This document shows positions 1 through 50,101 of a stretch of DNA of 64,000 bases, in pieces (position 1 is the first letter of the stretch; every line of letters begins with the position of its first letter). The stretch spans positions 223,075-287,074 of the forward strand of contig QPGO01000083.1 in NCBI GenBank assembly GCA_008632985.1, read 5' to 3'. Under the pieces are notes generated by a model. It had not been told where the DNA came from, ran no database searches, and saw only the letters and a program-made list of their open reading frames with translations. The DNA is from Psammoneis japonica. Taxonomy: Eukaryota. The position numbers were made by a program, and so were the translations under genes.

Positions 1-879
1 TGCGCAGAAATCTGCGCGCAATCAGTGGGCAGCATGTTTCTGCGCAATGTCTCTCGTAACTTCCGACCCAACTCCCTGAATGAAGGGAGAAAGAGTTCAG
101 ATGCAATGCTCAGGTCTGCTCTCTAGCTGCCAGAGAGCAGGCATGTAGACCTCGGTGTCAAGAGGGCGCGGTCCAGAGATCGCCTGGTGCACTTTTTGTG
201 CAGAAACTGCACAAGAGCCAAGCACGTGCATTCCCACACAGATGCAGCACAAAAACACAAAGCGGCGCTCCATCACGACTCCTCGCGACACACCACCTGA
301 CAACAATCCATCAAAATGGCGCCATCCACATCTTTCTGCAGCTCCTCTTTCACTTGCCCCGATTTCTCCAAAAGGGCCCAGGGGCAGCTCGCACACTTGT
401 GTCATGACAGAACAGTGCAAACACAAGTTGTTTTTTCATTCCAAAATCTCAGAATGGTGCAGTGCAACAGGGGTTGTCAAAGCAAACTCGCATGTTGGCT
501 GCATCAGCCAAATCAACACCTTGTTTGCTGTTCACTCTGGAGCAACAACAGAGATGCAGCACCCTGACAAAATGCGCTCTGCACTCGACAAATTGCGAAG
601 CTCAAAATTCTTGTTGGAAGACACTCTGGATCTGCTTTAGAGACTTGACACAATGACTCATTTGTCCTGTCATTCACCCTCTTAATTTGTTGCATTGGCC
701 AACAACTGGGGTGAGTGAGTCACATTTTCCAGGTCACAAACTGCAGCACAGCCAAAAGAAGCAATCTGTGCCTTTGGAACCATCATGATGCACTGGTCTG
801 CCAAACAAAACTCCGCATCACCACCCAAAGATGGGGGGAGAACTCTTGTCAAAAGTGTGCAATGATGTGTTTGATCTGT

Positions 880-1390
880 TGAGAGCTTGCCCAGCTTAAG
901 ACATCACAGCTCCAAGTTGCCACATTTGTTGTGAACTCTTCCTGATGCTGTGTCTGTGGCTTGGCTTCGTTGTTGAATTGCCGTGGCCATCGCACTTCAG
1001 AAATGACACTTGACAAGAAAAAGTGTCTCTGGGACACCTCACGACAACGGAGACCCTGCAGAACAAAAGAACAATGCAGAAAGAGAAAACACATGCAAGT
1101 TGGATGGTNNNNNNNNNNNNNNNNNNNNNNNNNNNNNNNNNNNNNNNNNNNNNNNNNNNNNNNNNNNNNNNNNNNNNNNNNNNNNNNNNNNNNNNNNNNN
1201 NNNNNNNNNNNNNNNNNNNNNNNNNNNNNNNNNNNNNNNNNNNNNNNNNNNNNNNNNNNNNNNNNNNNNNNNNNNNNNNNNNNNNNNNNNNNNNNNNNNN
1301 NNNNNNNNNNNNNNNNNNNNNNNNNNNNNNNNNNNNNNNNNNNNNNNNNNNNNNNNNNNNNNNNNNNNNNNNNNNNNNNNNNNNNNNNNN

Positions 1391-1425
<35 letters not shown>

Positions 1426-1808
1426 GCCTCAATGAAACACACAGCATGAGTGCATGAATGTGGCAATGCATGAGGTCGGTTGTGATGCAACAAAAGCAAT
1501 GTTGACAATGCGAACCTCCAGCAAGAATTTTCACCATCAGCTGCCCACATGAACCTGTGCGCTCTCAAGCTTGTCACACACCTTGTGCTGTGGCGTGCGA
1601 TGTTCCGTTGAGAGTGCACTGCAAAGTGCCTCAGAAACAACCACATTTTTGAAATCGGCAAAACGCCATTGTTCGTGTCATTTTGCGTGTTGTTTTGCGT
1701 TGAGAGCCAGAAAACACTCCCAAAATCTGTTCTGCAGGAAAAATGCACTGAACCCTCACAGATTTGGGTTGCACCAGGCCACGTGGAAAATGAGCGGGCC
1801 GAGAACTG
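880..1808. repeat. Dispersed repeat (end of a probable transposon); second copy at ~62345-62965; spans an N gap (1109-1390)
   Basis: Co-linear similarity such as CAGCTCCAAGTT.CCACATTT, CACCATCAGCTGCCCA..TGAACCTGTG, ACCACATTTTTGAAATCGG and CCAGGCCACGT.GAAAATGA.CGGGC.GAGAACT at both loci. Confidence 0.8.
1391..1422. repeat. (CA)n microsatellite next to the assembly gap
   Basis: acacac... run directly after the N run. Confidence 0.9.
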
Positions 1809-2246
1809 TGGCGCACCCACTCAAATTTTATGCACATGAAGCTCACCAGTGTCTGAGCATTTTCTTTCTTCCGAATGCTGGGGAGTGGATGACAGTGACA
1901 TGTCTCGCTCAGAATCTTTTGTCATCACAAGAAAACCAGATCTGTGTTTAAAGTGCTGTCACTCCATTGCCAGCCAGGCCGGCACCGGCCGCCAACCCAC
2001 ACTTCCAGCACACCGTCAAGTGCGGCAGAAGCTGACTCTAGGATCAGCCGGAGTGGGCATCACCGTGAGATGATGCCCCTCCGAAACAGCTGGCAACTGA
2101 GCAAGTGCCGTGAAGCACGTCATGCTTTGCCTTCTTGAGGCTGTCTTTCAGGTGTGGTTTGTCCATGGCAACCCAATTCATGATCCATGAAGTGGAGTGG
2201 GACATGTGATTGTTGACTGAATCTGAGAGCACTTCTCTGTCCTCAG

Positions 2247-2491
2247 TGACAGAAAATGAAGATGACTGGGTGGAAGAAAACAACAACTCCTTGCTGCTGT
2301 CTAAATGGCAGATGAGTGTCCATGCAGAGACCATTGCAGGAGCCGAAAGACTGGTGTCGTGATGTCGGCACTGCTGTTGTTGTTCTTGTGAGCCAAGTGG
2401 CTCAAAAGCAAACTGCATTGCGCGACGCACACGGAACTGAGAGCACACATGATCATGTGTGACAAACTAAAATCTTGCTCAAATCCTGTCA
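2247..2491 (-). repeat. 3' LTR of copia element A
   Basis: Direct repeat of 6556-6800, TG...CA termini. Confidence 0.92.
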
Positions 2492-5400
2492 CTCCCCAGT
2501 TTGCTTGAGGGGTCAACAGCGACAGATTCGAAGTCGGATTGGTTGAAAGCCTCAGGATCGAAGTTCCAAAACATTAGAGGATGAAGGAGGTTCCAGATTT
2601 GGGAGCAGCCCCAATGCTTGCTGAGGATGTCAGCCGGGTTGCGGGAGCCTTCGACAAAATGAAGCTCAAGGAAACCGGAGGCAATCGCCTCACTCACATG
2701 ATGGAACAAGAGGGCGGTGTGTCGCTTGTGTAACTTGGAGTGCAGGATGGCAGCACCGTCCACAACCGACTTGTTGTTTTCCAGGAAGATCATCATTTGC
2801 AGGGCACGGAGAGACACTGCTCCAGAACAGACACTGTCGACGGGCACGTCTGTGAGGTGTCCATCGGCAACAAGCCTTGCTTTGTGCTGTCCGTCATGTT
2901 TGACGTCACAGACGAGATGCACCCGGATCTTCTTGTGTCCTGATGGAGCACTGGAATCGTTGTGGTGTCCGCAGTCATGGAAGACCTCGCACTCATCAAG
3001 CTGAGTCATCTCGAGGTCCGTTGCATCTCCCCACTTGCGGTTGCCGTTGTGCTCATCAAGGGCCATGGCATGCCTGTGGTCCCATGGCACTTCATGCCCA
3101 CACTTGCATCATGGCGCAGTGTGAAAGGAGCACAACTTGGCTTGGTTGGCCATGCGGAACAGCTTCTTCTGATGAAGGGCCATCTTGCAAAAGCGTCTCC
3201 ATCCTTCGGTTTCTAGAAGGCCGTGCTCACACGCGTAGATGGCACAGGTGATGGGTTCGTCCTTGGCAATGATGGCAAGGGGTTCGGACGTGATCTCCCT
3301 GTTCTCCCATTCAAGCATGACGTTGCAGCTTGAGCCTTTCCAAGAGGGATCATGGGGTCGCAATGGTCCTTCATGTGGTGCAATGTGTCGGAACTTCCAG
3401 AGGGTGGTGTCCTTGTCTTCTTGCTCAATGTGGTGCATGATGTCATTGCAGGCCAGGACTTCCTCACATTCGTCATTGTTGACAGAGCAAATGAACTTGA
3501 CCAGTTCAGGATTGTCTCCGATTTTCCAGTCATGGTCCTCAATGACTTTGACGATGCGGGCTCTGTGGCGTTGTCCATCCTCTTGTGGCTTCATGAGGAA
3601 GGTGCGTCCCATGACATCCTCAGGGTCAAAGACCGGCACTTTGGGCATCCTGATTGCCTCCCCATCTGGTGAATCTGGTGAATCTGGTGAATCCTCAGAG
3701 TCGTGGCGGGATTTGATGACAGGTTCAGCAGATTTCTTGTCAGGAGGATCAAGACGCAGGTTTGGAGCAGACGGATCATGGGCGGAGCGCATGTTGGAAC
3801 AGCAGAGAATCTTCTGAGTGTCGTCAGAAAGAATCTTGAACGTCATTTGGTGACCAACGTGCTCAGCGATGTGTGGGAGGCCGGCTTTGATGTCGATGGG
3901 AATGACGCATCCATCAACAGTGGTGATGCGCTGCAGACCGTCGGGGACCTTGATGGACCGATCGTTGACATCGTGTTTGCACCACTCAAGCTGGCCGCAA
4001 GAGTGTGTCGTCTTCCCCTTTCCAGTGTGGGTGCACTGGTGAAGGATGGCAATGGCAGGGCTGCGTTGTGTGTGGATGACACCACCGGCAGCGACAATGG
4101 GAATGTCTGCCAGTTGATGATCATCGACACCTTGGACATCAATGTCATTGGGCTTTGCGTCGGAGCAGACGGAAGGTGCAGATCTGGGTGGTTTCCCGCC
4201 AGAACGGGCGGAAGGAGGCCGTTCAGGTGCCAGGAGAAGTTGCAAGTCGCCGGGTGGCAGGGGCTTGCGCCTGGTGAGATGAGCCAGAATGGGGTTAGCA
4301 TCGGCTGCATCAGCTGCAGCGTCAGATTGTGCGAAGGCTGATGCAAGATCGCGAGTGTTGGCGGACAAGTTGACATCGCCATTGCTGCCAATGCGGAGGT
4401 CGTGCAGGTTGACCGCCGTCAAGTCATGGCAGTTGCCGGTGTGGGCGGTGCACGAGCCAAGAATGATGGCCTTGGTGGACTGGGGCAAGGTGTCCCAAAT
4501 GCGCTGATGGTCCGGCGGAATGCGACGCCATTGTTCCTTGGTGAGGGAATTGCCACGAGTTTGTGCAGCACAAGCTTGGATGATGTCAACATCGCTGTCG
4601 ATGTCGAAGAACACATCGTCATCAGGGTCGTCAGGGACCAGGTCATGTTCGTAGATGGCACGGCGCGGAGCGCGAGGAGCCGTCTTGGGGGCGAACGTGC
4701 TGTCGCACTGTGCTGCAGCAGAAAGCAGGAGTCCACAGTGCTCTTCGTAAGAGAGCCCCTTTTCATTCTGTGTGTGGAACTGATCGGCCTGATTCTTCAC
4801 CGAACGGAGTTCTTTGACAGGATGAACGGCATTCTCAAGCATGACACGTTTCTGGCCAGCAGAGAAATGGTCTGCACCCAGGACAAGAGCTTCACACTTG
4901 CAAAGCTGGTCCTGCCAGTGAAGTGTGGAGGCATGGGTGGATCCGTTCCAGGTGCCATCACCAAGGCGAGCAGTGGCGAGGTACGTGAGAAGGGTCGAGG
5001 ACTCCAGGGTTGCGCGAGTGGAAGCAAGGGTGTGCTTGGAGAGGTCACGATGCACCGCTTGAGCATCAGAGGAGCCAACATGTTGATGAACAATTGCCCT
5101 GCCTTTGTCATTCTGCAAGATCCACTCGAGTGTGGCGAACATGTGCTTCTGTTGTTCATCAAACAGGGCCTTGTCCTCAGCTGTAGAAGGCTTGTACGTC
5201 AGATCGAGAATGCGTGTGACATCTTGGGAGCGGGCCTGTGCGATGATGGAGGTGTGCCACGTGTGCCACTGTTTGTCAGATTTGAGAAGTGCGAAGGCAA
5301 GTGGGTCATGTTTGATGCCTCGTTTAAAGTCACGCATGGGATCACGTGGTTTGGGTGGCAACGAGCCAGGAGTGGGAGCAGATGGTGCTGCACCCATGGA

Positions 5401-5745
5401 GAGGGACGCTGCATGCTCAGGACCAAGACGATGGTTGGTGAGCTCCTCTTGTGTGAACAATTGAGGGTCATTGCTGACATCCACACCGCCCCAAGCTTTT
5501 GCCATGTGCAGGCTAATCAGCGCAGCTGTCTGTGCTTTGTAACCGCGTGGCAAGGGCATTTGATTGGCGCCATCGTTGCACACAAGGGCACCCAATTGCA
5601 TTGGAGTAAAAGTGAAAAGGTCCTGATGTGAATCGGTTCCATCAATGTTGAGAGCAGAGCGCAATGGACTGTCTGCAGCTTGATTCAGAACAGTGCCTAG
5701 AATGTGTTCGAGGCCATCGATTTGTTGTTGCCTGGTGAGAACCAT
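2479..5745 (-). pseudogene. gag-pol remnant of copia element A (integrase core and most of RT missing)
   Basis: DFKRGIKHD gag motif, DVNDRSIKV, IRVHLVCDVKHDG, KLHKRHTAL, NPADILSKHWG; abrupt junctions LPHI|AEHVGH and MMIFL|ENNKSVV. Confidence 0.85.
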
Positions 5746-6555
5746 GTTGCAACTGGGTGGATGTCAGAACTGGCTGGAGTCGGAGGGTGAGCTTGAAATG
5801 ACTTGAAACTTGACTTGAATCTTGACTTGATGTCTTGAACTGTCTCAAGAGTCAGAAGCCGCTGGGCTGTGACATCCTGTTTGCAGCCAAGTGCTGAGCT
5901 TCCTGTCCGGTCTGTAGAGTTGTGCCGGCACGTCTGAACCCACAGCTGGCGACGCTTTGGGTTGCTTGAGAGCGGAGTGACGGGTTAAAAACCCCTGCTG
6001 ACAAGCCAGCCAGAGGTGGACAAGACCTCCAAACCGTTCTTGTTTTATGTGGGTTGGATGACCCGATCAGGCCGGCCAAATTTGGCACTGTGGAGGGACG
6101 AACAAATGTGGGAAATGCACCCTCGCCCCAATGCAGGCTGTGATCATGAACTGCTTCCTCTCACAGTTGTCCTCGTGGACCTTGCAGGACTGTGGAAGAC
6201 CAGCAATCCGGTGTAGATACAAAGCGGTAGACTTGGCGTGCGTGGAGCAGAGCCAGAGTCAGGGGTTTGCATCGTGTGCGCATGGATGCGAGCGGATGGA
6301 TTGGCAGGATCCGCTGTGAGGAATCCGGAATCTCGGATGTCTGAGAATTTGGGAATTCCTGGCCAAAGAAACATCTTGAACAAACACATCCAACGATGGG
6401 AGGCATTGGATGAATCCAAACGTGTGGATTCAATGCAGTGTCCAGCAGTGAAGAAGGTGGACATGCACTTCCACCACAAACGGTGCGTGTCGTCGAAAAT
6501 TTCTCGATGACAATGATGAACGCTCAATGGATGACAAAGAGCAAGACTGTTTGTC

Positions 6556-6800
6556 TGACAGAAAATGAAGATGACTGGGCGGAAGAAAACAACAACTCCT
6601 TGCTGCTGTCTAAACAGCAGATGAGTCTCCGTGCAGAGACCGTCACAGGAGCCGAAAGACTGGTGTCATGACATTGGTGCTGCTGTCATTGTTCTTGTGA
6701 GCCGAGTGGCTCGAAAGCAAACTGCATCACGCGACGCGCACGGAACTAAGAGCACTCACAATTGTGTGTGACAAACTAAAATCTTGTTCAAATCCTGTCA
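6556..6800 (-). repeat. 5' LTR of copia element A
   Basis: Direct repeat of 2247-2491. Confidence 0.92.
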
Positions 6801-7564
6801 CTCAGCAAGACATTCCTGTCATTTGTTGTGTGCAGCCACAAGTTTGCCTTCCGCCTGTTGGCATTGAGATGATTTCCTTGTCTCTGCATCATGGTCATGA
6901 ACCTCCTGATTGTGTTCTTCCCAAAGTTCCCACCAGAGCTTCCAAACAAAAGTTCCCATCTGCACTCCCCAAACCGGAGGCGGGCGATTCTCCCTGCGAC
7001 ACTTTTTCAAAAGGCAGGCCCATTTTAAGAAGGTGCATCTCTCCTGAAAAACATTCCAAACCCTTTGACATCACAACGGCAATCTTTTGCACTGTAGAGT
7101 CATTGCGCAAAACTTGTGTGGAACAGCACCAAGACAAGTGATGGAAAGTCTGTCTGTCTGTCCTTGGCGAATTTTGACTTTGCAAAAAATGGACTTGACT
7201 CTTTTCTGACAAGGCGCGTTTTTTTTCAATGCAATCTGCAGGCATTCTCAGCTGTTTTAGATGCATTCCAGGCCCAGGTGGGAGCTCCATGTTGCAGCAC
7301 TGACATGTGACACAATTGTTTTTTTGTCATCCGTTGCGTGTTTCACGCGCACATTTCTGCATGTGATGTGTTTTGCGAAACCCCAGACGTTTTATTTGAC
7401 AAAATTGTGGGAACACAAATGCACCAGGTGCATTCTTAAATGTCTGAAGAATGCACCTGGCCAAGCAGAAAATGATGTGTTTCAATCACAGACGAGTTTG
7501 TGCATTTGCAAAATTGCCTCATTTTCTGTTGGAGATCATTGACATGTTAATCACCTGACAATTT

Positions 7565-7640
7565 TGCTGCGGAGCTCACACGTAGAATTCTGCGGGCCCA
7601 ATGTCACACTGATCCCCACCCATGTCTGGAACGCATCTTT
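7565..7640 (+). repeat. Repeat terminus shared with 28612-28686
   Basis: TGCTGCGGAGCTCACACGTAGAATTCTGCGGGCCCAATGTCACAC vs TACTACGGAGCTCGCACGTAGAATTCTACGGGCCCAATGTCACAC. Confidence 0.8.
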
Positions 7641-8039
7641 ACATGCTTTGCGTCATGGGTCATTTTTGAAGGATTCCCATTGAGACATTCAGTTTGTTGA
7701 GTTTGAGGGTGCATTCAGTCGTGAAAGTCCCCCGGAGCAACCTCCATTCGAAAGCAAAAGTGGAGCACTGTTTTCTGACCATCTTTTTATGCACTTGATT
7801 GTTGAACAATTGTGAGTTCATCCAGAGGACTTTCTTTGCACATGCATGTTCTTAACAGTGCAATTGATTGTGTGTCAAGTGCCTTTGCAAAGTTGTCCTC
7901 TTTGTTTCAGCATCTGAAAATTGTCGTTGTCATTGTTGTTGGTGTCGAACAGCAATTTGTTGTGCAAATCACAATCAATTGCATGGCCGTCATCTCTCCA
8001 ACATTGCACTTCTGCATGCAACTTGTGCACACACCTTAA

Positions 8040-8245
8040 CAGCAAGAATCATGGTGGCAGTCTGTCTGTGTGGCGCAGTGATTTCTGCACATGTTTTGCA
8101 CTTTTGTCCATCTGCACCACCTCCAGCCCAAACCTGACCAACCTGATTCCAGTTGGATCAGGCTGGCGGTGGCAGGGATGGACAAAAGCTCAAAACATGC
8201 ATGGAAATCACCGTGCAGACAGACTGCCACTGTGATTCTTGCTGC
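8040..8245. repeat. Long inverted repeat or foldback (~85-bp arms), MITE-like
   Basis: CAGCAAGAATCA..GTGGCAGTCTGTCTG...TTTTGTCCATC...CCAGCC is the reverse complement of 8161-8245. Confidence 0.8.
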
Positions 8246-8629
8246 AAGCAAGTGGCAACACTCAGGCAGTGCCACAGAGCTTCTGCCTTTTGTCTGCTGC
8301 AAAAGGTGACAAAAATGGGAGCGGATGCACTCTGGTGCATGTGTTTGTCAAGTTGCACATGTGGGCAACATGCTGGTTTCTGCAGACTCCCCCCACAAGA
8401 TGAAACAGGGTTTGGTGGATGGCGCGATTTTCACCAGCACATTTTCTATGAGCTCTGCATGTGAATGCAAGTTTGTCAAAATGCACAGTTTTGTGCATTG
8501 GGGTTTGCTGCTGGAGTCAATCCCAAAATGAGACCCGGCACAAATGACATGTTCCAGCCACACGTGAACCAAAACATGCACAAAAACAACATTTGCATGG
8601 TTTTTGTGCAGTCTCTGACTTGCAAACAA

Positions 8630-9113
8630 GCTTTCACCACCAAAAGCCCAGATTCACACAAATGCAAATGTTTTGCAACACTGACAAGACTCGTGTCAGT
8701 GCTGCAATGTCATTGTTTTTGTGCAATCAATGTTTTTTCATTGCAACAAACGAGTTGCAACGCAACGGATGATTTTCGCCAAAATTTTTAAAGATTCATG
8801 TGCTGTTGCTGTTCAAGGCCAACACAAAATGTTTGTGCATGCATTGTGCAGTGTCAATCTGCTTGCACAAAAGTTTTTGCATTGCAAGTGCTGATGCACA
8901 GTCAGCATTGCTTCCACAAAAAAGTTTTGCAACATGTGCATCATGAAGGCTTGAACACGGATGAAAAATTGTTTAAATGTTCACACTCTCATCAAACATA
9001 AAATCCAGAATGCATGAGTGTTTTAATGAACAGCCTCAATGCACAAAGCTCACACAAATTATGTTCAAAATGGATTGTCATTTTGTGCATCACCTGGGAC
9101 TGGAACACGTCAA
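8630..9113. repeat. Dispersed repeat; second copy at ~54230-54690
   Basis: AGCTTTCACCACCAAAAGC...GATTCACACAAATGCAAATGTTTTGCAACACTGACAAGACT...GGAACACGTCAA at both loci. Confidence 0.85.
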
Positions 9114-9114
9114 A

Positions 9115-9235
9115 TTAAGGCTGGTCGGTTGCTGCTTTTTTTAAACCAAATTTGGCCAAACAGCTTGTGTTGTGCATGATTTTTCCTGAATTTCACTTCA
9201 CCATGGATGGAGGTGGTCCATCCACCAACTCTCAT
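9115..9235 (+). mobile_element. Probable DNA-transposon end (TTAAGGCTGGTCGGTTGC...); related copy inverted at ~55125-55285
   Basis: Reverse-complement match to GCAACCGACCGGCCTTAA and GAAATTCAGG...AATCATGCA. Confidence 0.5.
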
Positions 9236-9239
9236 TTGT

Positions 9240-12200
9240 TTCATGTTTGTCATGTGTCAAAGATTGTTTGTGCATTAAAGTTGGCAGATGGCAAACTGCA
9301 TTTGTGAGAAATGTCAATGATTTTCATCATCATCTTGTTTCAATCGCAGTGCTGATGGTTCTCGTTTTCATGTGTGATCAGATGTGACTGTGAACAATTC
9401 TTCTTGCATTCAAAAACAAACACTGCAAAAACCCTTGTTCAAGTGCACCGGCAATTTTAAAACAAATGCGGGGATGACCCCCCTTAAGACCAGAGTGGCA
9501 CCTGGTGCAAAAATGCACAGAACCTTCTGTTGGTCAAAAAAAAATTGAGAGGCATTGCGCTCAAAACAGCACAACAGACAAGAGCATTCGATTGCCACCC
9601 TTTTTGCCCCCAGAAAAATCCTTGGCCCTTGCGGGGCATGTCTGATCTCCAGCACTGAAATCACACACATTTCTGCATGGGTCTTAAATCATCACCTGCC
9701 CATCAGCCTTGGCTCATTGGACATTTTTGTTTGCATGCTGAAACTCATGAACTGCACAGATTTGAAATGAAGGCAAGGATTTTTTTGTGACAAGTTCAAT
9801 GAGTTCTTTCACATCCAGGCATGAAGTCATGAAATGTGTGGACACTGCAGCATCTGCATGGATGGAGATCTCAGGCGGGTCTTGTGTTTTCAATGCTGAC
9901 AAAAAAACACACACACATTTGATGGCCCAAACAGGTGACCGCCGAAGTGCCTCTCAAAAGCAACCCAGATTGTGCAATCCACAGATGCACACTGTCAATC
10001 AACATGAGTTTGCTGTCAAGTGAACAGAGCTTGCTGTCCAATGAACAGAGTCACTGTGCATGAAATGGAACACTCCATCCACGTCACATTGTCTGCACGG
10101 GTTTGTGTGCATTCAGTCATGTCTGGCGCAAAAAAGTGGATGCCCACCAAAGTGCACTCTTTTGCCTTGACAATGTGTTGAGATGATGAGGATCTTGTTG
10201 TTTGCCTCTGCACTTGTGGCCCTCTTTCTTTGCATCCATTTTGAATGGCATCCCACTCAAACAGAGCTCCAATGGCAAAGAAAATCAACAACGCATTGCC
10301 AGAGGATGAGGCTCTCTTTTTTGGACAGAATGGCAACACTTTCTGGTTTCTGGCAACTTTGTTCTGTGCTAGAGGTTGCTGGCTTGCTGTTGGGGACACC
10401 ATCAAAAATGGGTGCAGCCTGCCAAAGGGGCATTGTGAGACAAAACCTGCTGCCTGGTGTGTTCAATTGCACCGTTGGAGCTGGTCGCTGCTTCTGCCAC
10501 CAACAGAGTGCCATGTTAGAAAGAGAGTGAACAAAACAAGATGCTGTTGCAAAGAGCGCATGAGCAAGGCTGTTCCTGAGCTCACGGAGATGCAACTTAG
10601 AGCACCCTGGGCAAAAACAGGGTCATCCTTTTCAGGCTGGACACAGCTGTCACACAGCCATCACCTTCCCGAGTGATGCAGAACATCTTGATCCTGATTT
10701 CTTTTGCTGTGCCTGCCTGGTTGGTCTCTTCCATGATTTCATCCAACTTAAGCTCTCATGGACTGACCTTCATTGCATTTTCAAATCCACCAAACTTGTC
10801 CACTGCAAGTTGCATGGCCAGGCACAGCATGACAAATGAGCTGGGTGGTTGTTCAGGCAGCTTGGCTTTGGGTGATTTGCAGTCCTCCTTCATGTCTTGG
10901 AGGCACAATGAAAGTGTTGTCCAAGAAAAAATAAAGAATGCACCCTTGTTGGGAATGTCTTGCATGAACTTGACAATTTTGGGAGCAAACTTGGGTGGAG
11001 CAAATGCAAGCTTGACCCTGTCACTTGGCAGCTGGACAAGTTGTTTGCAGACGGTGTTGGAGTCACACTCGCAGTGGCATGAAAAGCACATCTCCACCAC
11101 TTGCATTTGAATGAGAGTTTGCAGCTTGCCTTCTGGTCCTTGATGGTCCTCATGAAAGTTGGCAAATGGAAGGTTGAGGGCAAGCGTGTGGTCAACAACC
11201 TTTTGCTCCACAAATTCATGGAGCTCTTTGTTGTCCATTGGAGCTGCTGTGTTGTCATGTCCCTGTCTTTTCACTTGCTCCTGGACTTGAAATGGCATCC
11301 TAAACTTTCCCAAGATGGTGCCAATGATCAAAAAGTGGATTCTTTCAAGAGTGCAAGACACAGAATGCAGTGGCCATGGAGGCTGCCTGTCTTCAGCCGC
11401 AAGAATCCAAGCCAACCATTCACAGAGAAGAATGAAGTGGAGCTTGTTGAGTTTCTCCTTGCATTCTTTGTTGTTGGTGGTTTCTTCCAACAGCTCATCA
11501 AGGTGCATCTGCTGGGTGACAGCCGGGTTGTCATTGTGGAGCATTGTTTGATGGGGGGCTGTCAATCCTCCTCTGAGCAATCAATGGCACAAGCATGCAT
11601 CCAGTCTGCAGCAGTCACTCCATCAAAGGCTGTTCAACAGCAAGTCCACGCTGCTGTTCCTTTGCATGCAGGATGTGGATCTGAGCCAACAAGTGTTGCA
11701 GATGCTGTTCCACCACCACACGCATCTGCAACATCTGCAGGAGCTCCTGGATCAACCACATGTGCAGGACTTGACACTGTTGCAGCAGTGCTCACTGGTG
11801 CTGCCAGACCTCCTGACAATGACACTTCTTTCTGCTTGGAATGCCTTCACATCATCTGTGTTCACTGTCTTTGTTGTTTGCATCAGACTGGTGACATTTG
11901 TGCTACAAGATCTGTCATCTCCATTCACACTGTGTCATGACAATTTAAAGTTGTGTTTAACTCAACAAACTTGACAAAAATGACAAAGGGGCAATGTTGT
12001 GTAATGACCCTAAAAGTTGCCTTGCCACGCATGCAACGAATTTGCCTTCATGTGTGGTGCAACCTTGTGATGTCCCCCCCCCCCATGTGTGACGAAAAAT
12101 GGTGCAGCACAAGGTGAAATCACTCAAAAAATGACCTTCCATGTGGGCACTGTCCTCATGTGTGGTGTCCCACACTGTTTGATGACTTGCAGCTTGAGTC

Positions 12201-14800
12201 AATGCAGCAGGGAGAGAGGCAGAGAGAGTGGAGAAGAACCAAGTTGGTCAGAAGAATCATCAACAGGAACCTGACTTCATCACTTCCAACAGAAGAGTCA
12301 GCCAGTTGTTGCCTGAAAAGAGCTGCCAAATCATTGTCAATGGCCTTTTGTCAATCCATCACTTTGACAACATGTGCAAACCCATCACAGCCATGCATTG
12401 ATTGCACACATTTCTTTGGCAATGAACTTCTTTTTCAGAATCTCTTGAAACTCTGAATGCACCTGAGGACAATCACCAAACTCCATCTTGGTGCAACAGA
12501 GAAAGTCCAAAGCTTTGTGAGCATGCTCAAATCTGCATCTTCTTGTTCCTCCTCAGAAGGAAAAAATGGCATGTGCTCAGCTTTGCACCATGGCCAAAAA
12601 AATCTTAAGACAATTTTTTGGGCTTTTTCAATGTACAACAATGTGCCAATCATGTTTGAACATGACACAGTTTCTTGAGACACTGTTTCATGGAAATGTC
12701 AACACACTGGTCAGCTTTGGCTCATTCTTCTTGCCAGACATGGCCACACAGCACTGACATTGATGCCCATTTGGGAGAGCTGCAAAAGCCTGCTGTGGTC
12801 AAAACAACTGCAAAGGCATGTGAGGTGGACACCAATCTTCAGCCAATGTGCTGCAAGGCATGTCTTTGAAGTGCAAAGACACACCCAAGTGAGACTGAGA
12901 TGTTCAGAAGCTTTGCTTCACTTTTCATGGGATGCCAACCTGGGAAAACAGCTCTGAAAGATGTGGAAGTGATCTTGAATGTGGGTGAAGGAGCTGTTGG
13001 TGCCACCCAACATCAACTCTCATCAAGCTCACAGTTGACTCTTGCGTGAGCATGTGTTCTTGTGAGTGAAACAAGAAAGGTTGCAGATGCTGTCACAGGT
13101 GATGTGCGCAAGTCTCTGGAGAAATGTGTTGCTGCTTGCCAATCCCTGCTGAAGATGCAGTGCCATCAACCATGCAACTGACAAACTCACTCAACAACTT
13201 TCAAGTTGACATGCCTCCAACAAATCCTTGACCAACTTGAGCTGGTTCTTGACAAAGCAATTGATGCATGACCTCCACCTGGCACAGTTTCTTCTCATTG
13301 CCTGTGCTTCTTTGTGCCCTGCTGCTGTGATCCTGTGCAACATGCAGCTGCTGCCATCTGAACAAGATGCAAGCCTGTGACTGCACTGCAAAGTTGCAAT
13401 GCATCTGGTGTGGGTTGGAGGAGCAAATTGTGTCACAGTCAGTCACTCTTGAGAGGGCCAAAAATGAAAAGCCAAACATCCTTGACACACTGCAAGTCTT
13501 CTGCTCAGCAAATGAGCTTGAACAAAGGCACAAATCAAGTTTTGTGCTAAAGGAACAAAATTGGGTGTGCAATGCAAAATCTCTGTGTTGGCCTTTCTTT
13601 GCAGACATGACTCCAAGAGACTCAACTGATGAAATGGCCAGAGAAAATTCTTGGATTCCTTGGGATCTGCAAATGCTTGTGTCTCAGAGTGCACAACATG
13701 TTGCATGAGTGCTTTGAGCACACAGAAGGAATGGCCTTGAGGAGCTGTTTTCTCACTCTGCCACTGTCAACATGATCTTAACCTTCTCCAACCAATCAGA
13801 GCTTTTCTTGCATGCCTTGACATGGCTTGATGGTGAAAAGAGCATGCAATCTAAAGGACATGGAGATTTCACTGTGCCCTGCAGAGCGCCTTGAGGATGT
13901 TTGTCCAGCATGAAATTTGCGCCCAGTTCTCTGATGTGGTTCATTGCAGTCCAAGGGAATGGACAAGATTCTGCACTGCTTGTCTGCTGCTGGACAACAT
14001 GATGGGTGAGTGCTGTCAAAACATTGGATGAAACATGCTGACAAGAAGCAGCAAAAAAGCATGACACACATGGAAGAAGAAAATCAGGACAAGTGATGAG
14101 TGCAAGCTCAACAACCTCTGACAGAGGGTTTCTTGACACTGACTTGTCCATGAGGAACAAACAACCCAATGGATCATTGTCAATTGAGTGTTGAGTGCTC
14201 TCTTCTGTGGCTGCAGGGTGACTTCTCAAGAGTTCTTTTGCCCTTTCCCATTCAATGACATGGAGACTGTCATTCTCAATGGCGATGATGCCACTGCTCT
14301 TTTTAACTCACCAATCCATTGCTTTCAAGGCAGCTGACAAAACTCATTTTTGACTTGGGAAAAATCAAAGAGATGGGTCAGTCACAAGTGAAAACAAGCA
14401 GTGGAAACATCATGATTTCCCAGAGTTGTGCCATTTTGAGTCATTGTCATGTTGGTTGAGGAATGAGGAGGGGTTCTTGACTGAAGCAAGAGTGAAGAGC
14501 AGTGCACTTTGACTGACAATGGAAATCAAAAGCTTCTGTTGACAGAACAAAACTCTGCAGCTTCTGATCTTTGTTCAACTTGTGTGCCACAACTGAACTT
14601 GATGCACCACATGTTGGGAGCCTTGGCTGGAGCAGAGGGCACCATCTTGGCATGTGCAATTGCCTCTTTGACTTTGGGCATTGCCAGGAGCTTGATGGCT
14701 GCCAGCAAGATTGAAGTGCTGAGTCAAAACAATTGTTCCACATGGACAGACAGACAAAATTCAGATGACTGGACACAGACAATCCCCCAGACTCTCCCTC
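9240..14800. mobile_element. Heavily decayed, unclassified repeat or transposon DNA
   Basis: Near-absence of TpA and CpG, excess TG/CA/TGCA, only Tyr-free short ORFs; no recognisable domain. Confidence 0.5.
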
Positions 14801-14849
14801 TCATTTCACTGATTTGAACCAAAAACAAAAGTTGACAAGAGAAATGATC

Positions 14850-16800
14850 TAATGCTTGCACAAAAGGGAGCTTGCTTCAAAGCCTGATTGCAGAATTTTT
14901 GGTCTTGGCCCAAGCCACAAACAAATGACAAACAAATGGACCCAATTCACTGGCCTGGAGCCTTCTTCCCAGTTGGCAACAAAAAGCTCTCTCTGGAAAA
15001 GGCTTCATGAGAAAATTTGCAAGTTGGTCCCTGACTCAACTTTGATGACCACAAATTCATGGCCATGGGACCAGAGCCAGGGTCTTTTGACCAGAAAACA
15101 CTTGGTGCAGTTGGTGGTGACATGGCGGTTGGTTGTGATGAAGAAGGCACCTTGACTGTCCTCATGAATTTGTGCACAAACAGAGGTCTCAAGGTCTCAT
15201 TGGGCATCAAAAGTCAATGCTGCTTCTTGCAGCATGCTTTTCAAGGGCAAGAGGGTTCTGAGGGCAAAAGATGTGGCTTGGTGCTTGGCTTCAAGAGTCG
15301 AGCACAATGGAGCAGTCTGGAGCTGGGGTGTTTCTAGACCAGAGCACAGGTGTTGGGGGATGACAAAACATCTGGTGCGGGATCAGATGGAGCTTGAGTC
15401 AGAACCCAGTTCTTGGTGAAAGAGAGACAGGCAAAGTCAGCACTGACCTGCAAGTTAAGATCCAGAGCACTCGTGAGAGACATCCACAAGATGCCCTCAG
15501 CTTGCACTCCCTTGAGGAAGCATGTGAGAGTCTTGATCACAGCAGCATGTGGGTTCTTGGGAGCCAAGTTGAAGTGCACACAACTTGACTTGTGGCCAAA
15601 GCAATGTCAGGGTGAGCATTTGCAGACAGACACAAGAGCATGCCAATGATGCCCGGCTGGGTTCAGGGCTCATGCATGGGCCTGCCAGCAGGATCACTGC
15701 CAAGTGCTTGAATGGCTGCCACCAGCAACACATTGGGTTTGCAGTTTTCCATGACCATGGCAGCAAATGTCTCATCAATCAACTCAGACTGAGATGATTT
15801 GACAGTGCTGTTGGCTTGGTCTTCAAACTTGATTCTGAGAAACTCAGCAAAACTCCTTTTCTCAGTCCATTTGAATCCTCTTGTGTGGCCCTTCAATGGG
15901 CTGATGATGCTGTCAACAGCAGACTCACAGTTTGATCCCACAGCCAGTCATTGACACACAAACAGACCATGCAGTCACAGTGAGAGCATGGCAGGAGGCA
16001 AGGATCAATTTTGCTCTGAACAAATCCCAGATCAAGAAAAGCTTGGACTCTTGCCAAGCTTTGGACAAGTTTGGGGCCAAGAGTGGACCTGAGCCCCTGT
16101 GGCAAATGAGCCCACATGGGATCATCTTGTGGGACGCACTTGTTTGCATGAAGATAGACTGAAGCAAAATCAGCAGATGTGGTGATCCATCCCATCATCA
16201 CACTGAATGCAAGGAACAGTTGAGTCACACTCTGTGCAATGATGGGAGCAAAGGTGTCAAAAATGCCATCCAGCAAATCTGCTTGATGACATCATTGGGC
16301 CTTGTGTTTCTTGATTTCTCCAGACAATGGGGATTTGCAGATTGCTTGTGGCAGAATGCCTGCCAAGCTCCAGGAAGTGATCTGGATTTGGCAGACAATG
16401 TCGGGACTTCAATCAATGCGTGCACCTTGGCACATGAGAGCCACATCAAACCATTCTGAAAGAGTCTCTGTGGGGCAATCCTTGACAACCAAGTTGGAAG
16501 GCAAAGAAAGTGTGAAAGGCCAAAGCTGGGGTGTCAGCAGTGGTGGCAGATGAAAACCAGCATTGTTTTGCACTCATCCAAAACATGGCCAGAAGCATGT
16601 CTTTGATGGCAATGACAACACTGCCCTGGGTGGCCATTTCTGTGTCCTCATGAGTCATTTCTGGTTGAGCATGCAACAGCACAAGTTGCTGTGTTTGGTT
16701 TTGGGTGGGTTTCACAAGCCGATGCTCAAGATTCTTCCAAAAGCACTTCCAGTGAAGTCACCAAGTTGACACAGACAATTCAAGACAATGGTCTTCAAAG
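14850..16800 (-). mobile_element. Degenerate copia RT/RNaseH remnant
   Basis: DTFAPII, SADFASVYLH, LGFVQSKIDPCL, CLCVND (expected YVDD), PKNPHAAVIKTLTCFLKG, QVSADFA; many frameshifts. Confidence 0.75.
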
Positions 16801-17229
16801 TTTCTTGTGTGCTTGGGCCTCAGCCACAGATTTGAGTTGATGCTGTGTGCATCCATGGGCACAATGTTGGGATGGCATGCACAGTGGTTTGGCTCAATTT
16901 TGTCAACACTCGGAAGCAGTTTTCTCATCAAGCAATTTCAGAAAAGCAGAGCCTCATGACACACCAATGGGGAGTTGTCAGCAGCATCGCCAACAATGAA
17001 AAGAGTCTCGCTGCAGATGTGTTTTCACTTGGGCCACTTGCAGCCATTTTTCACAATTGGGGGTGCACACATGGCGGCTTCATCCCACGACAATGTGTCA
17101 AAATCCTTGGCTTTCCAATGGGCAGCCTTGTGCACCTGTGAGGAGTGGTGGCAGAGGTGGAAGAAGGCAATGAAACAAGCCAAATGTCAACATCCTTGAG
17201 ATCAATTGTGCCCACAATGCTGGGAGGAG

Positions 17230-19092
17230 CATGCTACCGGCGGCCTCAACCGGTCCCGGCGTCCGTGACTGAAATTTCACCACGGTGAAGTACGACAATC
17301 GAATAATTCGATTGGACTCAACCGGTCCCGATTTTGCATTAAAAACGGCATGTTGTACTTTGATGCATCTCGCCATGGCATACGTCGTGATGACGATGCG
17401 TTATGCAGGGGGGATCTTTTTCTACCATTGTTTTAAAGAGGTTGATATGTTGGTTTGGTTTCCTGGGGTGCTTTGGTTGCTACACATGCTATAAACGGTT
17501 GCGTGCCTCGACTCGTGACTCGATTACGGCACGGTGCTGGTAACATCTGAATGGTCGACAACGTTGCGTGGTAAGTTCTTTCCATATTTTCTCATTTTAT
17601 ACCGTTTATGCGCTCACTAAAGATGTTGTTGGTGCTTTGTTATAGCTTCATAGGTTCATTGATCGTCTCCTACGGTTGATTATCGCTTCTGCAATATTGG
17701 CATCTTGTTCACGGCGTTTGCACCGCATCAGCGCTCCAAGTAAGGAGCCTTTCGCTTGCTCCCACGCAATGATCTTTTGTGGAAAGTTTCATATAATATT
17801 GTTGGGCTTGTGACACTCTTGGCTTGCTTCTAAGGGACTTGATCGGCTCTTAATAACGGCATTTCGTTTTTCGGCCATCACAATTTCTGAAAAGTGCATG
17901 CATTCAGAATGAAACGATGCGAAGGAGCATCGAGGACACCTATGACGTTGGTATTTGTCAGACAGACGTACCATAAACCAAAAAAGCTTTCCCTGTGAGT
18001 ATGTTGTGATTGATTGAGTTTTGGTCTCGTTTTGACGAAACTCGCATGCCTCACTAGCGTTTTTTGGTGTCTTCAGTTCATACGTCAGGCATGTGGTCTA
18101 TAATGACCCTTTCTTCCTACTCTGCAATGGCATTATCATCACTATCTAAGAAATTATATCGCCCACGCTATTTTGGGAGATCTTGGTAGTGTATCGACTA
18201 GTCTAGGCTTTGCAATGGGTAAAATGGGGAGGTGGAGGCTTTTATGGCCGGGCCCCTCGCCTACTCTTGGATGCGTGGATGCAACGAACAGCTGGTGGTA
18301 CTTGATGCAATGAAATTTGGTAATGCAACTCAGAACTACCTCTGAAAGGTGCACTAGTGAGTATACTGTGATTTGTGTCCTCATTGGCTTATTGTTGTGT
18401 GCTTTGTTCCGCTCATATTTTCATTTTGCCTGTCATTTTTTCAGCATGGATATCTAGGACTGCGAGCGCTTAAAGTGGCCTTTCCATGCCAATGCTCTAC
18501 ACAGCTGAAGTCCTTTGATAATAGTTGTTCCTTTGGGGAATCAGATTGTGGATCTTTCAGTATCTAGTGGGGTCTAGAGAGGTACGAGTTATGGATGCAC
18601 TGTACCGCTAGAGTGCGCGTGCGCGTGCGCGTGCGCGTGCTTCGCCATTGCGAATGATGACTAACCGATCTTACAGATCTTAGGTGGAGACAATTGTCCT
18701 GGTCTTGCATCCGTGAGGCAACTGTGGAAGTATCAAGGAAACTATCGAATGCATTGTCCATTTGTGATCTTCTACGGGTACTCGAAGCGGCGTTTTCGGC
18801 ATTTTCCGTCGACGACGAAAAGCTTGATAATCCATTAAAACGACTTATGGTATTTTGTCATTCTTTGGAGGTATGATAGTATAACTCTTGGTATTGTAGT
18901 TTTCTTTAGTGGTATGATTGTATCGCTTGTCCGTCGGGAAGAACAAACTACCGGTATCTTGCGTTGTCATTGCGCTGTGGGGCGGGTTGATGCGGCGCAG
19001 CGGCGCTCGGAATTCAAATCGAGCGAGCGTCCGTCAGTCAGCCGGCGGGACCGGTTGAGGCAGCGGGACCGGTTGAGGCCGCCGGCAGCATG
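17230..19092. mobile_element. Segment bounded by 29-bp inverted repeats; possible TIR element carrying an intron-containing gene or gene fragment
   Basis: CATGCTACCGGCGGCCTCAACCGGTCCCG (17230-17258) vs CGGGACCGGTTGAGGCCGCCGGCAGCATG (19064-19092); extra subterminal CTCAACCGGTCCCG copies; interior keeps TpA and has GTAAGT/GTGAGT donors. Confidence 0.55.
18613..18640. repeat. (GTGCGC)n short tandem repeat
   Basis: gtgcgcgtgcgcgtgcgcgtgcgcgtgc. Confidence 0.85.
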
Positions 19093-20470
19093 GTTGCAAG
19101 TGGAGCACCTGAGGGAGGTGGTGGGTGGAGTTTCCTCCCTCTGTCAGGGTGGCAGAAGTGGCTCCCTCTCTCTTGTCTGAGACTGTGGGATGGATTCTGG
19201 GATGCAGAAGACTCTCATTGAGGACTGGGTGCAGTGCTGGGTGTGGCTCCAAAACAGGGATGTCTCCCTCTGAGATGAGTCTGGGATGGCAGGAGCTGCA
19301 GGAGACTCCAAAAGGAGGTGAAGAGAAAATGACAGGATCTGGCAGAGCAGGGGCAGGACGCAAAGGCATTGCAAGAGAATGGGGAGGGGCCTGAGCTGCA
19401 CAGGGGGGACTTGGAGAGAGGTGGCAGAGGCAGAGGCAATCATGACTCAGTGGCAGCGCACACTTCATGCAGTCTTTGACGGCAGTCATCAGCATGTGGT
19501 CCTGGTTGGCATCACTCAGGGATGATCTTTGTTGTCCAAAGTGTGCTGGCATGCCCTGTCACCAAAGAGAGATTGCCTTTCAGGGGTGTCTGATCCAAGC
19601 TGACTGCAGCAAACCAACTGTCAAAGACAATGTGAAATTGTGGAATGATGGCACCTGCAGGCAGGGCTGATGATGTGTGCAACAAGCACTGAAGCTGGTG
19701 GCGCAAACATGCTGGCTTGAACAGGGTTGCCACCTTGGCATTTTCTTCCCATCAGCAAGTGAGTCATGTGGACCATGGATTTCTGATGCAAGTGCCACTG
19801 GCACAAACCTGGGAGATGCATTCAGTGCAAGCAGTGTGTCCCTTTCCAATGACAGCTCAACTTTGGCCATTGGTGCACTGCAGCACACAGAGCACTGCCC
19901 AGGGAAAAGGCTGAATTCAAATGCACACACTTGAAGAATCTGCCTTGGCACCAGAGGGTGGACTGGTTGATGGTGAGGGCATTGGCAAGGACTGTTTTGG
20001 TGGTTCAGAGTTTGTGGCAGACAATCTGACTGCAGCTTCTTTCAGAGCTTGGGGTGATGATCTCAGCGAGGAAGACTCTGTCACACTTGTGTCTTTGCAA
20101 GCAAAGGCACTGCAATTCAAGAAATTTGAACAATCAACTTGCAAGACAAGACAATGACCATCCTCTCTTTGCTCATTCTTCCGAAACCTCACCCGCCCTC
20201 TGGCCTGGCTGCACCAGCTTGGGATTGTTGGGAATGAGTCTTGCACTCCAATCTAGTGAAGACTTTCCAGTCCAAACAAATGGGCACCACTTCCTTTGCT
20301 CCTTGAACTAGAAGAACACAGGAGAGCGAACGAGAAAGGCGGCACCAGCGCAGCCGCTCCCAACTGGAAGGTGCGGCCGGCGGCCGGAGTGAGCGCGCGT
20401 ACGTCGCGCGCAATGCTCCATGCATCCTGACCTTCAACCGTTTCTTGTGTTTTGAAATTTGAAACCCCGC
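19093..20470 (-). mobile_element. Copia-derived fragment (integrase C-terminal region)
   Basis: GKKMPRWQP and GAIIPQFHIVFDSWFAAV match the GKKLPRWQP...PQ.HV.FDD motif also present in element B; TpA-depleted. Confidence 0.7.
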
Positions 20471-42633: not shown

Positions 42634-42638
42634 TAGAG

Positions 42639-42833
42639 AGTTGACATCTGTCAATCTACCTGTCGACTGCGCGCAATCGCGCGCTTCAATTTTCAAATTC
42701 CGCCATCAAAACTCTGCTCGACACTGCAGTCATAATTTTCAGTCAGCAACTTTTGCAACAACAACAGCCACTAGTTTACAACCTTGAGCATCAGCTCTTT
42801 CGACATCTGCAGTTGTGCATCGGCACAACAAGT
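42639..42833 (+). repeat. 5' LTR of copia B
   Basis: Gapless match to 49907-50101 with 12 differences. Confidence 0.95.
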
Positions 42834-48500: not shown

Positions 48501-49883
48501 GCTCCAGTGGTCCAACAGTCGACCATCCGTCTCGCATTGAGTGCCGTCCTACAAGAAGGATGGACCACCCGTCAGGTTGATTGCACCAACGCTTTTGCGC
48601 AGGCCGAGATGACGGAAGACGTTCACATCGAACCACCCAAGTGTTTTGCTCCCAGTTCGGGATCCAATGTTGTCTTGAAGCTGCTCAAGAGTCTCTGCGG
48701 TCTCAAGCAAGCTCCCAAGTGCTTCTTTGATAAGCTGCGTGAAGGATCATTGGAACGTGGATGGACCCAGTCGCAAGTCGACCCGTGCCTGTTTTTCAAG
48801 GACGGTGTGATTTGTGCAGTCCATGTTGATGATGCTGTCCTCGCTGGCAAGAATGGAGCCGCTCTAGAAAATGAGATCAAGGCTCCAGGCATCCAAGACG
48901 ACGAACAACGCCATGCATTCGAGTTGCGAAACGAGGGAGAAGTTGGTGACTTCCTCGGTGTCAAGATTCGCAAAACCGGACCCAAGGAATTCCTCCTTGC
49001 CCAGCCTGGACTCATTGACAAGACCCTCAAAACAGCTGATGTGGAAGATTGCCGCTCTTCTCCCACTCCTGGCACTGCCTCCCCATGTCATGCGGATAAA
49101 GAGGGAGCCGAATTCGACGAGAACTGGGACTGCCGTTCCGTCATCGGCATGTTGATGCACCCATCATCCAACTCCCGACCAGATGTCTGCTGCGCCACGC
49201 ATCAAGCCGCTCGTTTCTCATGTGCTCCCAAGCATTCTCATGCGATTGCGGCGAAGCGCATTCTGCGCTACTTGCAAGGCACTGAGGACAAGGGACTCCA
49301 TCTACGCCCTGGCGACAACGAACGTGTTGATTGTTTCGTTGACGCCGACTTCGCCGGCCTCTGCGGTCACGAAGACACTCAAGATCCGGTCAGCGTCAAG
49401 TCCTGCACCGGACATGTCATCTTGCACTGCGATTGTCCTGTTTTATGGGTTTCTAAGCTACAGACGCAAATGGCACTCTCCACAATGGAAGCCGAGCACC
49501 TTGCTCTGTCGGCTGCGATGCGCGATCTGACCCCGATTCGTGAAATTTTGAAGGAATTCAAGTGTCATGTTTTCGGTCTCACGGATTACAAGACCCCTGC
49601 CACCACCAAGTCCAAGGCCTTTTCAGATGTAAAGGATGGTGCGATCCCTTCTTCAGCAGTTTATGAAGACAATCAGGCGTGCCTCAAGTTTGCGAAAATG
49701 GCCAAGTTGTCTCCACGCACCAAACACATTGGCACTCCCTGTCATTGGTTCCGCACCAAGGTCGAGGCTCTTGAGATCCAGATTGAGCCTGTAGGAACTG
49801 ATTCCCAGTTAGCTGATCAATTTACGAAGGGACTTATTACTGACAAGTTTGAATCTGGTCGGTTGAGTCTCTCAGGCTGGTGG
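45536..49883 (+). pseudogene. copia B pol (protease, GAG-pre-integrase, integrase, RT, RNaseH), frameshifted and hypermutated
   Basis: VFDAGAS (PR), WHARFGH...CDTC, SVDHF/HLTDGG/NGVAER (IN), KARFCVRG, CGLKQAP, HVDD (RT), VDADFAG, EAEH, YEDNQAC, QLADQFTK (RH); frameshifts near 47800 and 48433. Confidence 0.93.
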
Positions 49884-49906
49884 CTCTACCTACGGTTGAG
49901 AGGGAG

Positions 49907-50101
49907 AGTTGACGTCTGTCAATCTACCTGTCGACTGCGCGTAATCGCGCGCTTCAATTTTCAAATTCCGCCATCAAAACTCTGCTCGATATTGCAGTCA
50001 TAATTTTCAGTCAGCGACTTTTGCAACAACAACAGCTACTAGTTTACAACCTTGAGCATCAGCTCTTTCGATATCTACAGTTATACATCGGTATAACAAG
50101 T
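49907..50101 (+). repeat. 3' LTR of copia B
   Basis: Follows the PPT; followed by TSD TAGAG. Confidence 0.95.

Follow-up and report, generated by a model that had tools for sequence, protein, structure and literature searches.

A DNA-level mutator acts on the mobile-element domains of the diatom Psammoneis japonica after insertion, converting the dinucleotide TpA (TA) to TpG or CpA and changing almost nothing else. The process was followed in a window of 64,000 nucleotides (nt) from the 91-Mb assembly of this species (contig QPGO01000083.1, positions 223,075 to 287,074), which is the whole stretch of DNA analysed, and in relatives of its repeats elsewhere in the genome. Named relatives of one housekeeping protein of this genome, among its 120 best hits, come from Cylindrotheca, Amphora and Seminavis, by which the host would most likely be a raphid pennate diatom. 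The mutator delivers single, distributive hits on either strand and on each copy independently, with YTAR sites (Y, pyrimidine; R, purine) in A/T-tracts being the last to go, and it works without reverse transcription and without CpG decay. The sequence it prefers can be summed up as (R)ATAY(B), A/T-tracts being spared.

The window consists of gene-bearing blocks with ordinary TpA, alternating with blocks almost devoid of it, and the edges between them are sharp; from position 16800 onwards the TA counts per 100 bp are 0, 0, 0, 0, 2, 4, 7, 5 and 8. The block on which most of this work is based is the following:

1..17229, no strand assigned: TpA-erased domain of decayed mobile-element DNA, with 76 TA left in 600-17200, 48 of them YTAR.

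Between 600 and 17200 the observed/expected ratio (O/E) of TpA is 0.071 as against 0.572 in genic controls, that of CpG is 0.35 as against 0.98 in genes, and those of CA and TG are raised to 1.67 and 1.83. As seen by this contrast and by the sharp edges, host genes are spared and the loss of TpA is confined to foreign or mobile DNA. The contigs of sequencing run X1 agree with this TA-poor sequence (four other letters and one gap over 11481-17262), which argues against an assembly error, but X1 may be the source sample itself; a check of 10 single-depth differences between the window and this run showed no TA edit among them, and the two are probably the same sample.

A first-pass annotation, made from the letters of the window, had claimed that the TA surviving in 600-17200 are mostly YTAR, and this is borne out. 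YTAR accounts for 48 of the 76 survivors (TTAA 26, CTAA 11, TTAG 6, CTAG 5), the remainder being RTAR (16), YTAY (8) and RTAY (4); as YTAY and RTAR are reverse complements of each other, they form together 24 mixed survivors. Among genic controls YTAR makes up 142 of 765 TA (odds ratio 7.5, p=1e-15), and a local Markov expectation gives a YTAR fraction of 0.30 as against the 0.63 observed (p=1.5e-9). The seven positions which that annotation had named all prove, to within one base, to be YTAR, and each is a TTAA or a CTAA. The survivors cluster in AT-rich tracts, and TA survival bears no relation to local GC.

The direction of the changes was determined in a family of long terminal repeat (LTR) retrotransposons, family 1, which is represented in the window by an internally deleted copy:

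2247..6803, minus strand: LTR retrotransposon copy, internally deleted (family 1), with 75 of 98 scored TA sites converted relative to the lightly edited copy L065 (39 to TG, 36 to CA).
2247..2494, minus strand: LTR of this copy, differing from its partner at TA-derived TG/CA sites and retaining both CTAAA sites.
6556..6803, minus strand: partner LTR, 89% identical over 248 nt.

We take this element to be of the copia type from reverse transcriptase-like motifs recognised by eye; Pfam gave no match in the window copy. The family has dozens of genomic copies, from which 30 loci were taken, five of the matches being TA-normal (O/E 0.50-0.58) and the rest depleted. Twenty-four edited copies were each aligned pairwise to L065, a real and lightly edited copy, and a TA site was scored only where one or more of four further copies with light editing had the same hexamer, a rule which retained 139 of 204 TA. 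The 12-17 kb element of the window was set aside as a polarising family, its relatives being only 63-72% identical over long matches.

Across the 24 copies, 2655 TA site-copies were scored, of which 2062 had been edited, 1140 to TG and 922 to CA, and 593 were unchanged; the two outcomes were about equal within each copy. The rate of A>G per strand was 36% where the 5′ base was T, 4.0% after C, 2.0% after A and 1.5% after G, whilst no class of transversion exceeded 0.37%, the double change TA>CG was found only six times, and CpG decay stood at 14-21% per strand. The copies were edited independently of one another, with a direction concordance of 0.60 as against 0.62 expected (271 pairs), and no strand-coordinated runs were found along them (1012 of 1999 neighbours, null 0.500). 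Loss of TA is bimodal among the copies, at 12-21% or 53-87%, age and position being confounded in this division. The preference for TAY is seen already amongst the early edits in four lightly edited copia copies (45 of 63). In the LTR pair of the window copy, 10 of 17 edits are TAY when read without an outgroup, a count which may include CpG-derived sites; read by eye against lightly edited LTRs the figure is 16 of 21, in which changes common to both LTRs may be single pre-insertion events. A>G was also seen in copies L061-L080 at about 2% at CAY and AAY, as against 0.5-0.8% at CAR and AAR; a secondary CAY/AAY target was not adopted, as the rate at CAY did not track the editing dose (rho 0.24, p=0.25).

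Flank rates were estimated from family 1 with a competing-risk model, on the strand reading TA>TG. The relative rates for the base following the A (+1) were 0.39 for A, 1.39 for C, 0.56 for G and 1.66 for T, so that a pyrimidine at this position raised the per-strand rate 3.2-fold over a purine (site bootstrap confidence interval (CI) 2.5-4.3). For the base before the T (-2) the rates were 1.86 for A, 0.80 for C, 0.71 for G and 0.63 for T, and further terms were found for T at -3 (0.57) and A at +2 (0.52), with G at +2 staying near one (1.12, 0.89-1.43); thus a 5′ A about doubles the rate, and upstream T-runs and a downstream A about halve it. The fraction of TA kept falls accordingly from 0.44 at YTAR through 0.22 at YTAY and 0.16 at RTAR to 0.06 at RTAY. 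At YTAY sites the TAY strand was hit more often than its complement at 41 of 49 and less often at 7, and at RTAR sites the opposite strand was ahead at 13 of 19 and behind at 5; as both strands of one duplex site are compared here, this test is immune to site accessibility and to composition.

When all 16 contexts were given free rates, the fastest were ATAT (2.73) and ATAC (2.26) and the slowest GTAG (0.31) and TTAA (0.25), and whichever of the four 5′ bases was present, NTAY exceeded NTAR by 3.0-4.0-fold, no lower bound falling to 1.5 or less. The preference for TAY on the edited strand, as had been claimed from the letters, is therefore real, but it is an incomplete description of a rule in which the 5′ A, the upstream T-runs and the downstream A also count. 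TAT is edited as fast as TAC or faster (TAC/TAT rate ratio 0.70, CI 0.41-1.24), and ATA/TAT duplexes are the fastest on both strands. To the left and to the right of the TA the flank weights nearly mirror each other, which suggests a duplex-level component to which site effects could add. The choice of strand is led by a C at +1 (log-odds 0.84, CI 0.68-1.0, with the same sign in three families), although direction data alone cannot split a liking for +1 C from a dislike of -2 G; G at +2 and at +3 are weaker strand-choice terms, and the TACG strand was chosen 362 times as against 81. No dependence on hairpin loops was seen in an indirect comparison of the rate with predicted unpairedness (rho 0.07, n=131).

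The rule carries over to a second family of the window, a copia element (RVT_2 match at 48336-50000, E 6e-28) inside which the edge of an erased domain runs, with one LTR edited and the gene-side LTR spared:

42636..42833, plus strand: left LTR, edited, of this copia element (family 2), where the edits that the first-pass annotation ascribed to its "element B" sit.
49904..50101, plus strand: unedited right LTR of the same element, with 13 TA as against 4 in its partner; it adjoins a gene.

That annotation had counted 8 of 9 LTR edits as TAC or TAT, and the count is correct (4 TAC, 4 TAT, 1 TAG); these LTRs lie, however, outside the range 600-17200 under which it was entered. As no unedited copy was present among the 10 examined in family 2, only the choice of strand could be scored, and this was predicted by the family 1 model at 94 sites (rho 0.61, slope 1.19), nine lone-TA columns having been left out here and kept in the three-family analysis of strand choice. 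The same model gives the window survivors a median rate of 0.50 as against 1.52 for TA in genes (p=2e-23), and at 3-8% survival it predicts that 57-68% of them should be YTAR, as compared to the 63% seen.

A wider comparison used a non-redundant set of 344 depleted tiles (466 TA) and 243 normal tiles (4284 TA), which come from loci found by similarity and their flanks and are not a random genome-wide sample. NTAN tetramers were counted in the depleted and in the normal tiles, and depletion is far from uniform. Relative survival was low for ATAT (0.06), ATAC (0.09), GTAC (0.40), ATAG (0.41) and ATAA (0.57), close to one for CTAC (0.98), and high for GTAA (1.40), CTAG (1.45), CTAA (3.24) and TTAA (3.95), an order nearly identical to that derived from the alignments of family 1.

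The process is not limited to retroelements. The window also has a DNA element with terminal inverted repeats (TIR):

17230..19092, no strand assigned: TIR element, unedited, inserted in the erased domain, with 29-nt inverted ends and a 2-nt target repeat.

TA-free DNA starts again on its far side at 19093-20363. Between two other copies of this family (L139 against L125), 64 of 99 TA had been edited, 5 of 104 CpG had decayed and there were 8 other changes; with hardly any loss of CpG, neither reverse transcription nor prior CpG decay is needed for editing. Of the 64 edits, 43 are TAY, and when five edited TIR copies are pooled the favoured strand has received 123 of 201 edits (p=0.002), so that the flank bias in the DNA transposon is the same as in the LTR elements but weaker. 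No strand runs were found in the young DNA-element copies (107 of 212, 105 expected). Many TIR copies which are 98-99% identical are untouched; most of the 30 relatives examined are unedited even beside erased DNA, and L139, L142, L147, L148 and L149 are heavily edited. Contigs of run X2 skip GT..AG segments of the element (17569-17645, 18356-18445 and 18579-18675), and some near-identical copy is therefore transcribed and spliced. Youth or transcription may protect such copies. The idea that the target repeat is itself an edited TA was dropped, as another copy has an AA repeat together with the same TIR variant.

As to the mechanism, we lean towards a targeted, zinc-dependent deamination of adenine with a strict reading of the 5′ T, directed at duplex DNA in domains chosen by chromatin and serving defence, a reading which the sequence patterns make somewhat more probable than all others taken together. 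The domains would be picked by their chromatin or silencing state and not by homology pairing, because many TIR copies 98-99% identical have escaped, as has one LTR of a pair and an element lying unedited within an erased block. The substrate would be duplex DNA, hit distributively over time, in which adenine is hydrolytically deaminated to inosine and copied as G. The enzyme is probably neither the housekeeping TadA nor ADAT2/3 in its known mode, and the function is probably defence, as the open reading frames and cis sites of the elements are wrecked. Deamination of A is favoured because it gives A>G directly, because known polynucleotide adenine deaminases read a 5′ U or T, because the transition is clean, and because no MPG/AAG glycosylase was found in the genome, in a search whose controls were matched in 4 of 14 genomes. 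The deaminase-like specificity suggested by the first-pass annotation is thus plausible from sequence, though its identification with TadA is unsupported.

Several points weigh against this reading and it should be considered with caution. TpA is self-complementary, and therefore sequence cannot separate deamination of A in TAY from modification of T in RTA. The family 1 estimates come from 139 sites of one element, in which site effects can mimic flank effects and intervals are wide; the strand-choice effect of +2 G is absent in family 3; YTAY sites in the cleanest DNA-element pair, L139/L125, split 10:10; and the TA edits in L141/L147/L148 and L138/L149 were polarised against a single copy 84-94% identical. 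A gene for Endonuclease V is present in the genome (contig C147). We know of no natural DNA adenine deaminase with an ATAY motif, and no dedicated enzyme was found in these first-look searches, which a divergent enzyme could escape, the matches to the cytidine deaminase (CDA) fold being an ordinary set. The relatives of the one TadA-like protein, those from diatoms included, are annotated as tRNA(adenine34) deaminase.

The CDA-fold profile matches in the genome number nine for PF00383 and five for PF14437, and by eye and Pfam the set comprises a dCMP deaminase, RibD, a pair of deaminases of metabolic appearance, an ADAT2-like frame (C26) with Asn in its GCRN motif, and the TadA-like protein (C38). 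The latter has the motif G-A-P-D, with Asp at the position aligned by eye to residue 108 of Escherichia coli TadA (EcTadA), and starts with a hydrophobic leader which suggests import into an organelle. Neither the profiles PF00383, PF14437, PF18778 and PF08210 nor a protein search turned up a fusion of a deaminase with a Tudor or chromo domain. A frame of 320 amino acids resembling the AID/APOBEC/SNAD4 deaminases (L158:1063-2022, minus strand, contig C2, E 1e-12), of which no paralogue was found in the genome, was rejected as the mutator, as its family is one of cytosine deaminases, which leaves A>G unaccounted for. A further CDA-fold deaminase is fused in-frame to a 2-oxoglutarate-Fe(II) dioxygenase (DIOX_N; L085:313-1785, minus strand, contig C79), a fusion which probably serves nucleobase metabolism.

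By the symmetry of TpA, an identical outcome would follow if T were the modified base, with a TET/JBP-like or other enzyme oxidising T in 5′-RTA(T) of repeats to 5-hydroxymethyluracil (5hmU) or beyond, and the product mispairing with G to give TA>CA. The nearly palindromic motif, with ATA/TAT duplexes fastest on both strands, is in keeping with this, as is 5hmU in dinoflagellates, which takes the place of T preferentially in TA and TC and is concentrated in repeats (PMC11572971). However, unlike that preference, there is no excess of T>C at TC (equivalent to GA>GG, 1.5%), and no Tet_JBP match was found in the genome, in a search whose control was silent in all 14 genomes. Nor is 5hmU known to us as a near-saturating mutagen, and on balance we consider this explanation unlikely. 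A special case of the deaminase reading, in which a cofactor would turn the host TadA or ADAT2/3 towards DNA, much as Ame1 turns fungal Tad2-Tad3 towards mRNA, is the candidate of the first-pass annotation and of the Bigelowiella preprint discussed below. In its favour, both genes are present, the edited sites have a strict 5′ T, C at +1 is the strongest term of strand choice in all three families, and the TACG strand is the one mostly taken, EcTadA reading U-A-C-G (PMC10586758). The analogy with TadA drawn in the first-pass annotation therefore holds for the 5′ T and for the strand chosen but fails for the absolute rate, where TAT equals or exceeds TAC, yet EcTadA is described as admitting no other +1 base and as needing G at +2 (PMC10586758). 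Fungal editing prefers hairpin loops and a +1 base that is A or G (PMC11156358), as compared to the 3.2-fold excess of pyrimidine over purine and no sign of a loop effect here. The Asp and the putative organellar leader of the TadA-like protein do not favour this role either. Of the eight eukaryotic A34 anticodons, all but one carry a +1 purine, which weighs against ADAT2/3, and taken together we regard such a redirection as rather improbable.

An error-prone polymerase of the Pol eta type, with its WA hotspot (W, A or T) known from somatic hypermutation (PMC6423074), could resynthesise patches in methylated repeats after deamination of 5-methylcytosine and insert G opposite T, and CpG decay does co-occur in the erased domains. 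AA>AG, however, lies near GA>GG (2.0% and 1.5%) and far from TA>TG (36%), transversions are at background, strand runs show no patches, and L139/L125 carries 64 TA edits with hardly any CpG loss (5), all of which makes this very unlikely, though some other polymerase that is strict for TA is conceivable. If the excess of YTAR instead reflected new TA, selection on stop codons, target-site repeats or local composition with no target preference, survivors clustering in AT-rich tracts would be expected, as they are seen; but the same ranking is obtained from ancestral TA scored per copy and from strand choice within single duplex sites, which composition cannot produce, and with the Markov expectation falling short and survival unrelated to GC this explanation is refuted and carries hardly any weight. 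Most of the edited DNA examined is retroelement-derived, as it would be had transcripts been edited as RNA and the changes fixed by reverse transcription; against this, each copy has about as many TG as CA, LTR pairs differ, and a DNA TIR element is edited, so that RNA editing is likewise refuted, with next to no probability left to it.

Among described systems, the diatom mutator works like the process in the chlorarachniophyte Bigelowiella natans, where two viral regions had acquired 231 de novo mutations, 230 of them A:T>G:C and all of these at TpA (Mettrop et al., bioRxiv 10.64898/2026.01.13.699255). Both act on foreign or mobile DNA, integrated DNA of nucleocytoplasmic large DNA viruses and virophages in Bigelowiella, giving TpA>TpG/CpA only, on both strands and unevenly between lineages or copies; they differ in that de novo mutation was measured in the two viral regions of Bigelowiella, whereas in the diatom it is LTR and TIR elements that bear a footprint close to saturation. 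That preprint offers deamination of A as a hypothesis and proposes ADAT2; its main text holds neither a flank analysis nor diatoms, although Table S2 of its supplement may hold flanks. The logic of the diatom process is that of ascomycete repeat-induced point mutation (RIP) with the opposite chemistry: both are transposon-directed and permanent, with both-strand transitions at one dinucleotide, but RIP changes C>T and makes TpA, whereas here A:T goes to G:C and TpA is destroyed. RIP is also triggered by homology, in contrast to the many untouched, near-identical copies and the spared LTR in the diatom. A mutator of this kind has barely been described before, and our literature search brought up nothing published about hypermutation of TpA in diatoms or about the flanks it prefers.

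Comparison with known deaminases and marks gives likenesses of a more partial kind. EcTadA and the base editors derived from it share with the diatom process A>G and a 5′ U or T, and the diatom strand choice leans towards TAC(G) (PMC10586758; PMC12296453). EcTadA strictly reads UACG in an RNA loop, whereas in the diatom the 5′ T is near-absolute, T at +1 is as good as C, and A at -2 matters (PMC10586758); TadA8e is described as having a slight YA preference and none at +1 or +2 (PMC10586758; PMC12296453), and no source was found for a TAY preference of base editors. Fungal Tad2-Tad3-Ame1 is a precedent for a tRNA-type deaminase redirected to a new substrate with a strong 5′ U, but it acts on RNA loops with purines at +1 as opposed to DNA with pyrimidines at +1 (PMC11156358). 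Dinoflagellate 5hmU, attributed to TET/JBP homologues, is likewise a thymine mark preferring TA, and TC, in repeats, but it is described as a silencing mark and not as a mutator, and the diatom lacks a TC signal (PMC11572971).

What is added here is the table of 16 rates, the terms for -2 A and A-tracts, the prediction from one family to another, the finding that strand runs are lacking and the poor fit of ADAT2/3. Mutating mobile DNA from A:T to G:C almost to saturation goes counter to the bias usual among mutations, as well as to RIP. The 16-context fingerprint (ATAY over TTAA about tenfold; AA, CA and GA ignored; both strands without runs) makes the hunt for the enzyme testable, speaks against both Pol eta and an ADAT2/3 working as it is known to, ADAT2 being the published candidate, and allows a direct comparison with Bigelowiella as the same or a different system. 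It is conceivable, though we would put it at somewhat below an even chance, that diatoms and chlorarachniophytes share a natural chromatin-guided adenine deaminase of double-stranded DNA with an ATAY target, used in defence against transposons and viruses. Such a shared enzyme would be an adenine counterpart of RIP and APOBEC and a natural version of the activity of laboratory-evolved base editors, and any deaminase acting on adenine in double-stranded DNA would be relevant to base-editing tools. Either way, the dating of LTR elements and the annotation of transposable elements will be biased in such genomes.

Two further features of the window bear the marks of the same process:

12000..17229, no strand assigned: the most heavily erased stretch, with 0-4 TA per kb and CpG nearly gone too; it is a decayed repeat with relatives 64-72% identical elsewhere in the genome.
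8542..9481, no strand assigned: repeat common to this segment and to 54140-55154, AT-rich and with many surviving TTAA, the copies differing largely by TG<->CA.

Within 600-17200 there is also an N gap of 282 nt at 1109-1390, followed by an (AC)n tract. A tandem array with a period of 181 bp occupies 25812-26576 in a TA-poor block, which is flanked by inverted repeats (24629-24754 and 26621-26746). Finally, a gene-like segment is duplicated at 50185-51178 and 63024-63999 (84% identical), and the latter copy, which adjoins an erased domain, is the poorer in TA (27 as against 43).

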